A stretch of DNA of 64,000 nucleotides, taken from the NCBI RefSeq assembly GCF_001677475.2, contig NZ_CP015229.1; one strand, written 5' to 3'. A program made the position numbers and the translations under genes. Positions 13,137-13,353 of this stretch are shown piece by piece. Under the pieces are notes generated by a model, which did not search any database, was not told where the DNA came from, and saw only the letters and a program-made list of their open reading frames with translations. How positions within the stretch are numbered: position 1 is the first letter of the stretch; each line of letters opens with the position of its first letter. The DNA is from Escherichia coli (GTDB lineage: Bacteria > Pseudomonadota > Gammaproteobacteria > Enterobacterales > Enterobacteriaceae).

Positions 13137-13314
13137 CTTGTTAATGCCTTACTTTTAGTCGCTTTATTGCAGGTGAGATTTGCGCGGCATCAACGGTAAC
13201 ACTTAAGTAACAACATTTAAATAATGTTTATAAATTATATTCTAATTTTAGAAACATTATAATTTCGTTGATTAATTATACGGTTATTAGAAACGAAGGG
13301 ATTTTTAGAATATT

Positions 13315-13341
13315 GACCTGGCGGCAGCAGTCCGCCAGGTC
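13315..13341 (-). terminator. stem-loop just downstream of yojI; no clear U-tract
   Basis: 10 bp GC-rich stem gacctggcgg / ccgccaggtc with 7 nt loop, 13 nt past the yojI stop. Confidence 0.35.
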
Positions 13342-13353
13342 AGCGTCGAAATA

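Follow-up and report, generated by a model that had tools for sequence, protein, structure and literature searches.

Phosphorylated ArcA (ArcA-P) acts at operators that overlie the sigma-70 promoters of genes for carbon oxidation, among them sdhC, cyoA, icdA and lpdA, and the site upstream of mqo in Escherichia coli is itself a published member of this class (Park et al. 2013, PLoS Genet, PMC3798270). In that study, an ArcA ChIP-seq peak was found at mqo in two replicates, the anaerobic occupancy of mqo by sigma-70 was reduced, and mqo was derepressed 31.8-fold in an arcA mutant. The 18-bp ArcA box given there for mqo (ttgttacttaagtgttac, 20.5 bits) is one of the 128 boxes behind the published logo. 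A second class of described elements comprises stable stem-loops without a U-tract, which Dar and Sorek (2018, NAR, PMC6061677) observed at the steady-state 3' ends of E. coli transcripts that depend on Rho. The spacer between mqo and yojI holds the published mqo site and, past yojI, a candidate for the second class.

The DNA analysed was a stretch of 64,000 nucleotides (the window), which is E. coli DNA: positions 13000-13500 were 99.6% identical to FDAARGOS_497 and 97.8% identical to K-12-type strains (DH5alpha and TG1). Its minus strand carries mqo, which encodes malate:quinone oxidoreductase (11490-13136; assigned from the list of open reading frames and chromosome matches), and yojI (13354-14997; assigned from the same list and the RefSeq annotation at the matching place in FDAARGOS_497 and K-12), alongside alkB and ada. 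The yojI stop codon, TAA, occupies 13354-13356 on this strand according to the open reading frame and the sequence, and the spacer between the two genes (13137-13353) is 217 bp long. An earlier reading of this DNA from its letters alone (the sequence-only reading) had described the mqo upstream region as AT-rich, which was borne out by GC contents of 34% in the spacer and 18% in its core (13205-13313), as against 50.5% in the entire 64-kb window. Coordinates in NC_000913.3 (K-12) equal window positions plus 2293618, and U00096.2 numbering is NC_000913.3 minus 1978. Since the window and K-12 show no difference between 13280 and the start codon of mqo (ATG), published K-12 data are directly transferable to this region.

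With a probability of roughly 80%, we read the spacer as an RNA stem-loop at the end of the yojI message, followed by a sigma-70, ArcA-repressed mqo promoter with an A/T-rich upstream zone and an FnrS-complementary leader. The spacer is ordinary, already known and largely explained by published genome-scale data. mqo is among the most strongly ArcA-repressed genes, and the outcome of the analysis is a full map of its control region in this strain, with the transcription start, the core promoter and the ArcA box that overlies it, the A/T zone under constraint, the leader complementary to FnrS and, upstream, the structure at the transcript end; this map is of little import beyond correct annotation. 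Among Mqo-encoding loci from 80 species, yojI was found immediately upstream of mqo in Escherichia only; ca. 1.7 kb separates the two genes in some Citrobacter, and two genes lie between them in Klebsiella. In a permissive Rfam scan of 12900-13600, no family's gathering score was reached, and the three sub-threshold matches were at chance level, the best being ctRNA_pGA1 (23.1 bits as against a gathering score of 45), which spans the mqo start codon.

The mqo promoter, its ArcA operator and its leader

The mqo transcription start was placed at 2304825(-) in U00096.2 with a 49-nt leader by Kim et al. (2012, PMC3415461, Table S2), on the strength of 10 reads in a high-throughput survey. The 51-nt upstream sequence printed in that study matches window positions 13235-13185, and the start is thus at 13185 on the minus strand. 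A sigma-70 ChIP-seq peak at 2304822, within 3 bp of this start, was present aerobically only and was gone under anaerobic conditions (Myers et al. 2013), and genomic SELEX gave sites for both RpoD holoenzyme and H-NS in this spacer (Shimada et al. 2014, PMC3946193). The ca. 150-bp remainder of the spacer beyond the stem-loop is the sigma-70 promoter of mqo, with its start at 13185. The sequence-only reading had proposed comparison with mapped mqo start sites; measured from 13185, the inverted repeat that it described lies at -36 to -75, in the promoter zone as it had supposed.

Upstream of the start, the extended -10 element TGTTACCGT, of the pattern TGnTAnnnT (13193-13201, minus strand), ends 7 nt before the mapped position. 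Its hexamer, TACCGT (13198-13193), has TG ahead of it, and the hexamer TTTAAA (13216-13221, minus strand) lies 17 bp further upstream, at a place that fits the mapped start. We infer that TTTAAA and TGTTACCGT are the -35 hexamer and extended -10 element of the mqo core promoter. TTTAAA agrees with the consensus at 4/6 positions and TACCGT at 3/6. A consensus scan of the spacer called no promoter and no terminator on the minus strand, since the hexamers of the mapped promoter are too weak and the hairpin lacks a T-run. Of 17 scanned regions upstream of mqo, 13 contained TGnTACCGT, with occurrences in Escherichia, Citrobacter, Enterobacter and Leclercia, and TTTAAA stands 17 bp upstream of TACCGT in Enterobacter also.

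The best-match promoter that Shimada et al. (PMC3946193) gave for the same SELEX fragment, TTGATG-16-TGCAAT (13193-13166), was rejected, since it conflicts with the mapped start and its -35 element is not kept in Enterobacter, whereas CACCTGCAAT is kept there. The conservation of CACCTGCAAT fits a role at the RNA level, namely pairing with FnrS, better than a role as a -10 element. Three TATAAT hexamers further upstream (13280-13275, 13261-13256 and 13239-13234) were also discarded as promoters, because the best -35 sequence available to them (TTATAA) agrees with the consensus at 3/6 positions and they have no TG extension; Kim et al. (2012) list no start at these hexamers.

The ArcA-P operator published for mqo (Park et al. 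2013, Tables S1, S3, S4 and S6) consists of three direct repeats, TTATTTAAATGTTGTTACTTAAGTGTTACCGT, at -39 to -8 (13193-13224, minus strand), and its sequence is the same in the window and in K-12. Its core 18-bp box, TTGTTACTTAAGTGTTAC (13196-13213, minus strand), which is supported by both matrix score and publication, contains two direct TGTTA repeats that are 11 bp apart from centre to centre. The box was scored with a weight matrix built from 114 other published boxes, with the mqo box left out (training median, 16.0 bits; maximum, 21.9 bits; minimum, 9.6 bits). With 20.7 bits, it was the second-best match across the 64-kb window, the top match being the published rcsD site at 19629; in both repeat spacing and score, it therefore has the form of an ArcA box. 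E. albertii and most Citrobacter retain the box, with scores of 14.5-18.2 bits. The repeats at 13193-13224 cover the -35 and extended -10 elements, and ArcA-P bound to the three 11-bp-spaced direct repeats (13224-13193) occludes RNA polymerase. Repression of mqo by ArcA-P without oxygen is ca. 32-fold, as published work on the identical K-12 sequence has shown. Comparison with known ArcA data, which the earlier reading had also proposed, thus led to a documented operator of three direct repeats that adjoins the inverted repeat, and which excludes it apart from a 4-nt overlap.

Target sites of FnrS, an anaerobic small RNA, were reportedly described by Durand and Storz in 2010 and by Boysen et al. 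in 2010. Like such sites, the mqo leader shows perfect complementarity to the 5' end of FnrS, with the pairing predicted here: UCACCUGC, at +10 to +17 in the 5' UTR (13169-13176, minus strand), is complementary to nt 1-8 of FnrS as sequenced in K-12. The predicted duplex has an energy of -17 kcal/mol, which was reached by none of 1000 shuffles. The match is kept across genera, usually as UUCACCUGC, and is 9 nt long in most other genera examined as against 8 nt here; the 49-nt leader accordingly presents FnrS with a conserved 8-9-nt match to its 5' end. PMC10993149 gives mqo as an FnrS target. The Shine-Dalgarno sequence TAAGG (13147-13151, minus strand) lies inside a 9-bp match to FnrS nt 46-54, and the duplex at this place is weak, its energy being reached by 64 of 1000 shuffles. 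AAGGCA was found unchanged in each of the 16 genus-level sequences.

The end of the yojI transcript

A stem-loop occupies 13314-13342 on the minus strand, with its 5' arm at 13342-13332, its loop at 13331-13325 and its 3' arm at 13324-13314. The sequence-only reading had described a strong hairpin with a 10-bp stem (GACCTGGCGG / CCGCCAGGTC) 13 nt past the yojI stop codon. The hairpin is indeed present, but its stem extends to 11 bp, closing a loop of 7 nt, and 12 unpaired nt lie between the TAA and the hairpin. Its folding energy was -23.2 kcal/mol (z = -5.05), and none of 200 shuffles folded as well; a perfect repeat of at least 11 bp occurred in 0.7% of spacer shuffles.

The hairpin had been put forward as a possible terminator, a term that fits only loosely: the yojI message does end in a selected RNA structure, but the U-tract that an intrinsic terminator requires is missing. 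The hairpin shares with canonical intrinsic terminators a GC-rich stem, the usual stem and loop size and a position directly past the stop codon. Unlike them, it has neither a U-rich tract of ca. 7-8 nt directly after the stem nor an upstream A-tract: only 1-4 U are found in the 8 nt past the stem. The tail AAUAUUCU has 4 U in most strains, including this one, and there are 3 U in K-12 and 1 U in E. albertii; the tail is not conserved in Escherichia, while the stem is. Since it lacks a U-tract, the hairpin falls outside the class of canonical intrinsic terminators, and it is not one of them. A strong hairpin past a stop codon is therefore not necessarily an intrinsic terminator. It is possible, though doubtful, that the hairpin works as a Rho-independent terminator of the conventional, if weak, kind. 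A GC stem of -23 kcal/mol placed 12 nt past the stop codon and the 4 U of the most common tail speak for this, as do the intermediate cases noted by Dar and Sorek (PMC6061677), but even that tail falls short of the five or more T per 8 nt that the scan demands, and the variation of the tail over a constant stem and the missing A-tract argue against it.

By analogy with the stem-loops at Rho-dependent 3' ends, the yojI hairpin is more likely a protective or weak-terminator stem-loop. As in the elements described by Dar and Sorek, a stable GC stem-loop lies just past the coding sequence, few U follow, and C exceeds G downstream (11 C as against 5 G in the G-poor 80 nt past the stem); Rho dependence was observed for that class, of which the yojI hairpin is a candidate member by its sequence features. 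The hairpin is followed by an AT-rich linker (13286-13313, minus strand), which is G-poor, with C exceeding G, and poorly conserved: 16 of its 28 columns are variable in Escherichia, with 9 nt deleted in E. albertii. Judging from its composition, this linker could be a zone of Rho loading or termination.

We propose that the RNA of yojI, and of read-through from ada-alkB-yojI, would fold into the 11-bp stem-loop 12 nt past the stop codon, and that this stem-loop most likely sets the 3' end and blocks exonuclease. Release itself, whether Rho-driven or through inefficient intrinsic termination, may take place in the AT-rich and G-poor DNA that follows. A transcript end at this place would keep yojI transcription out of mqo. 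In a tiling array study (PMC6505713), an MNNG-induced transcript spanned ada, alkB and yojI and excluded mqo, an extent that is consistent with a boundary within this spacer.

The A/T-rich upstream zone and its inverted repeat

The AT-rich region upstream of the core promoter, at ca. -40 to -100 (13225-13285, minus strand), contains the inverted repeat and is conserved. Divergence at 4-fold sites of mqo was 0.21-0.31 to E. albertii, E. whittamii and two cryptic lineages. In the same Escherichia comparison, there were 0 differences in the 56 nt of the start site and leader, 0-2 in the segment of the ArcA operator and core promoter, 0-2 per 40 nt in the repeat zone (13221-13260) and 1-4 per 25 nt at -76 to -100. 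Within E. coli, 13216-13265 was identical in 91% of 5420 genomes. Set against the 4-fold divergence, this constraint indicates that -36 to -100 is functional DNA, and it is not specific to the arms of the repeat. A block conserved across genera reads TATAAACAwTATTTAAAnnTTGTTAC...TGTTACCGT, and both TTCACCTGCA of the leader and the Shine-Dalgarno sequence are conserved as well.

The zone at -40 to -100 is probably UP-element-like, curved or H-NS-bound A/T DNA that aids a weak core promoter, as its composition suggests. It resembles UP elements and H-NS-bound A/T tracts in its GC content of 18%, its position upstream of hexamers of poor consensus and the SELEX sites for H-NS and holoenzyme reported here (PMC3946193). 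Unlike generic tracts of this kind, it is conserved more tightly than A/T richness requires, and it remains a candidate by sequence; the constraint on -36 to -100 in Escherichia exceeds the need of a generic A/T tract. The UP-element reading further presumes a consensus sequence for such elements. In the proposed arrangement, conserved A/T tracts occupy -40 to -100, upstream of the weak-consensus -35 and extended -10 elements; these tracts probably act as a UP-like or curved element, and H-NS binding to them has been reported.

The imperfect inverted repeat described earlier in the mqo promoter zone was confirmed. Its perfect 9-bp arms, ATAATGTTT (13221-13229) and AAACATTAT (13252-13260), are separated by 22 nt, and they extend to 14-nt arms with 13/14 complementary positions and a 12-nt spacer. 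The proximal arm (13221-13234; minus strand TTTATAAACATTAT) lies at -36 to -49 and shares 4 nt with the first ArcA repeat, and the distal arm (13247-13260; minus strand ATAATGTTTCTAAA) lies at -62 to -75. Dinucleotide shuffling of the AT-rich core produced a perfect repeat of at least 9 bp in ca. 11% of cases, and the repeat as first described is therefore not beyond chance. The proximal arm falls within TATAAACAwTATTTAAA, part of the block conserved across genera. In Citrobacter and Enterobacter, conservation does not extend to the distal arm and the repeat is lost (6/9 complementary in C. braakii, judged by eye). The proximal arm thus belongs to a cross-genus promoter block, and the distal arm is specific to Escherichia. 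The 50-nt repeat region matched its own locus alone in E. coli genomes, which rules out that the repeat is part of a dispersed motif. Partial resemblances to the motifs of IHF, Fur, Lrp, RcsB, PhoP and Fis were set aside.

The suggestion that the repeat is a regulator-binding site held in part. It lies in the promoter zone, but the documented site there is formed by the direct repeats of ArcA, the arms score below ArcA boxes, and the repeat is lost outside Escherichia. Compared with what marks a palindromic operator, that is, occurrence beyond chance and retention in related genera, the repeat falls short. We read the inverted repeat as part of the conserved A/T zone upstream of the core promoter; it is not the known operator. 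A striking palindrome in AT-rich promoter DNA can adjoin a real operator, here made of direct repeats, without being the operator. The caution of the sequence-only reading, that neither the repeat nor the hairpin could be assigned from the sequence alone, was sensible, and published data largely settle the promoter side.

It is unlikely that the repeat is instead the operator of an Escherichia-specific dimeric or tetrameric regulator that activates or represses mqo. The arm centres are 26 bp apart, and the repeat is just upstream of and touches the -35 hexamer. Of 2000 shuffles, 23 (1.15%) contained a 13/14 repeat, and no more than four loci of the 64-kb window have one, but this threshold was set post hoc, and the 9-bp core is as frequent in shuffles as stated above. 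A C-to-A change in two lineages (L004 and E1V33) gives a perfect 14/14 repeat, whereas two proximal-arm changes weaken the repeat in E. albertii. The near-invariance of its 40 nt across Escherichia and its identity in most E. coli genomes would also suit an operator, but -100 to +49 is all equally conserved, so that the conservation is not specific to the arms. The loss of the repeat in Citrobacter and Enterobacter tells against an operator as well, as do arms of 14 bp with a 12-bp spacer, which are atypical for a simple dimer site, and the literature surveyed, which reports no factor at the repeat. If the repeat did bind a factor, a well-studied gene of the TCA cycle and respiration would gain one more regulator, a modest advance.

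We give equally little credence to a bolder account of the spacer, in which the repeat is the operator of an Escherichia-specific mqo regulator that works beside ArcA, for instance through looping or competition with H-NS, and in which, separately, the yojI stem-loop is an RNA-level-selected end without a U-tract that shields a respiratory promoter against read-through induced by Ada.

It is similarly improbable that the arms, which both start with ATGTTT, are extra weak ArcA half-sites that lengthen the ArcA-P filament upstream. The arms were the next-best matches to the ArcA matrix in the spacer, a distance of 44 bp (4 x 11) separates the distal TGTTT (13256-13252) from the first TGTTA of the core, and most ArcA sites have three to five repeats (PMC3798270). 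However, with 9.4 and 7.7 bits, neither arm scores as high as even the weakest of the 114 training boxes, which rules out the arms as ArcA boxes; they are opposite in orientation whereas ArcA repeats are direct, and Park et al. give three mqo repeats only, ending at -39. A strong inverted ArcA box (16-18 bits) is present at the aligned position in Citrobacter, but its E. coli counterpart lacks the key TG of the first repeat.

Selection on pairing in the yojI stem-loop

The stem-loop past yojI is a selected RNA structure at the 3' end of the gene. In an alignment of nine Escherichia sequences, 97.9% of stem cells were paired, as compared with at most 64% when the partner columns were slid, and the covariation score of the stem was reached by none of 500 shuffles. 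Two stem pairs were changed on both sides in these sequences (G-C to A-U and C-G to U-A), and each of the four one-sided changes gave a G·U pair in the yojI-sense RNA. A metagenome scan for further variants of the hairpin yielded four loci only, and a fifth G·U pair in the stem was found in an E. albertii-like metagenome contig (L088). All five one-sided changes thus pair only in the sense RNA, a strand asymmetry for which p is only ca. 0.03. Since changes in the stem were either compensatory or led to G·U in yojI-sense RNA, selection acts on RNA pairing rather than on the sequence.

A search of 5421 E. coli genomes (blastn, 11-base word) found the hairpin at a single place per genome, which rules out a REP/BIME-type repeat. 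That the GC palindrome, which is perfect over 11 bp in this strain, works as DNA, whether as a protein-binding palindrome, a repetitive extragenic element or a cruciform, is most improbable, since it has one copy per genome, all five one-sided substitutions are A/C mismatches in DNA or antisense RNA, the compensatory substitutions alter the stem sequence itself, and GC stem-loops of unrelated sequence take its place at the same position past yojI in Citrobacter. Outside the selected stem, 6 of the 7 loop columns are variable, and the flanks show a neutral-like rate of change.

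ArcA boxes and gene order at mqo

In a comparison of the mqo promoter regions of related species, an additional 11-bp segment (CTTAAGTGTTA-type; window 13197-13212) was present in Escherichia and Citrobacter but not in Enterobacter, Lelliottia, and Leclercia (loci L016, L023, and other Enterobacter-group loci). The size of this segment is exactly that of one ArcA repeat unit, and its presence creates the strong 18-bp ArcA box. In the Enterobacter group, it is instead the upstream copy of TTTAAA that stands 17 bp upstream of TACCGT. The ArcA box of Lelliottia (ATGTTTAAAAATTGTTAA) is at the ancestral position and scored 21.7 bits on a matrix built from 114 published ArcA boxes.

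In several Citrobacter species (L009, L012, and L037), the mqo promoter is preceded by a second, inverted ArcA box (ATGTTATTAATACGTTGA; 14.7-18 bits across the loci). Relative to the mqo ATG its position is about -143 to -148, which aligns to about 13254-13271 of the window. In E. coli the corresponding sequence, ACATTATAATTTCGTTGA, no longer has the key TG; it overlaps the distal arm (13247-13260) of the inverted repeat pointed out in the sequence-only reading. As for the whole window, the top score on the same matrix was 21.5 bits for ATGTTAATTATTTGTGAA (19612-19629, minus strand), which matches at every position the ArcA box given for rcsD by Park et al. 2013 (PMC3798270).

The mqo promoter block is conserved whatever the upstream neighbour gene. 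The adjacency of yojI and mqo is confined to Escherichia; the two genes are about 1.7 kb apart in some Citrobacter (L007-L010) and are separated by two genes, KPN_02630 and KPN_02631, in Klebsiella.

Other promoter calls and FnrS complementarity

For mqo, Shimada et al. 2014 (PMC3946193) gave TTGATG-16-TGCAAT (13166-13193, minus strand) as the best-match 'constitutive promoter'. Transcription from it would begin about 26 nt downstream of the position at which Kim et al. 2012 mapped the mqo start, and its -35 element is not kept in Enterobacter. The sole promoter-like match of our scan in the yojI-mqo spacer was on the plus strand (GTAACA-18-AATAAT, 9/12; 13196-13225), overlapping the ArcA box and directed into yojI from its 3' end; no start-site evidence was seen for this match.

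The mqo leader contains two matches to FnrS, an anaerobic small RNA, both on the minus strand. Nucleotides 1-8 of FnrS are perfectly complementary to UCACCUGC (13169-13176; +10 to +17 of the leader), with a duplex energy of -17 kcal/mol that was reached by 0 of 1000 shuffles, and this match is kept across genera. The weaker one, a 9-bp match of nucleotides 46-54 to AAGUAAGGC (13146-13154), spans the Shine-Dalgarno sequence of mqo, and its energy was reached by 64 of 1000 shuffles.

Hairpins and inverted repeats

For the segment of the hairpin 3' of yojI (13314-13342, minus strand), 2930 of the 5421 complete E. coli genomes (about 54%) fell in the 90-95% identity band, as did K-12. In K-12, one pair of the stem is G·U (window 13321, NC_000913.3 2306939). 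The fully Watson-Crick stem of the window, identical to that of Nissle 1917, is the minority form (187/5421 genomes).

Immediately 3' of the mqo stop codon lies a hairpin with a 14-bp stem (GCCACATCCGGCAT / ATGCCGGATGTGGC), and after it comes a REP-like palindrome, GATAAGACGCGCCAGCGTCTTATC (both within 11420-11489, minus strand). Two more inverted repeats in the window have arms of 14 nt or longer with no more than one mismatch: one at 23205-23240, which looks REP-like (GCCAGATAAGACGC), and one at 29516-29560 (TTGCTATGCAGAAATTTGC...GCAATTTTCTGCATAGCCA).
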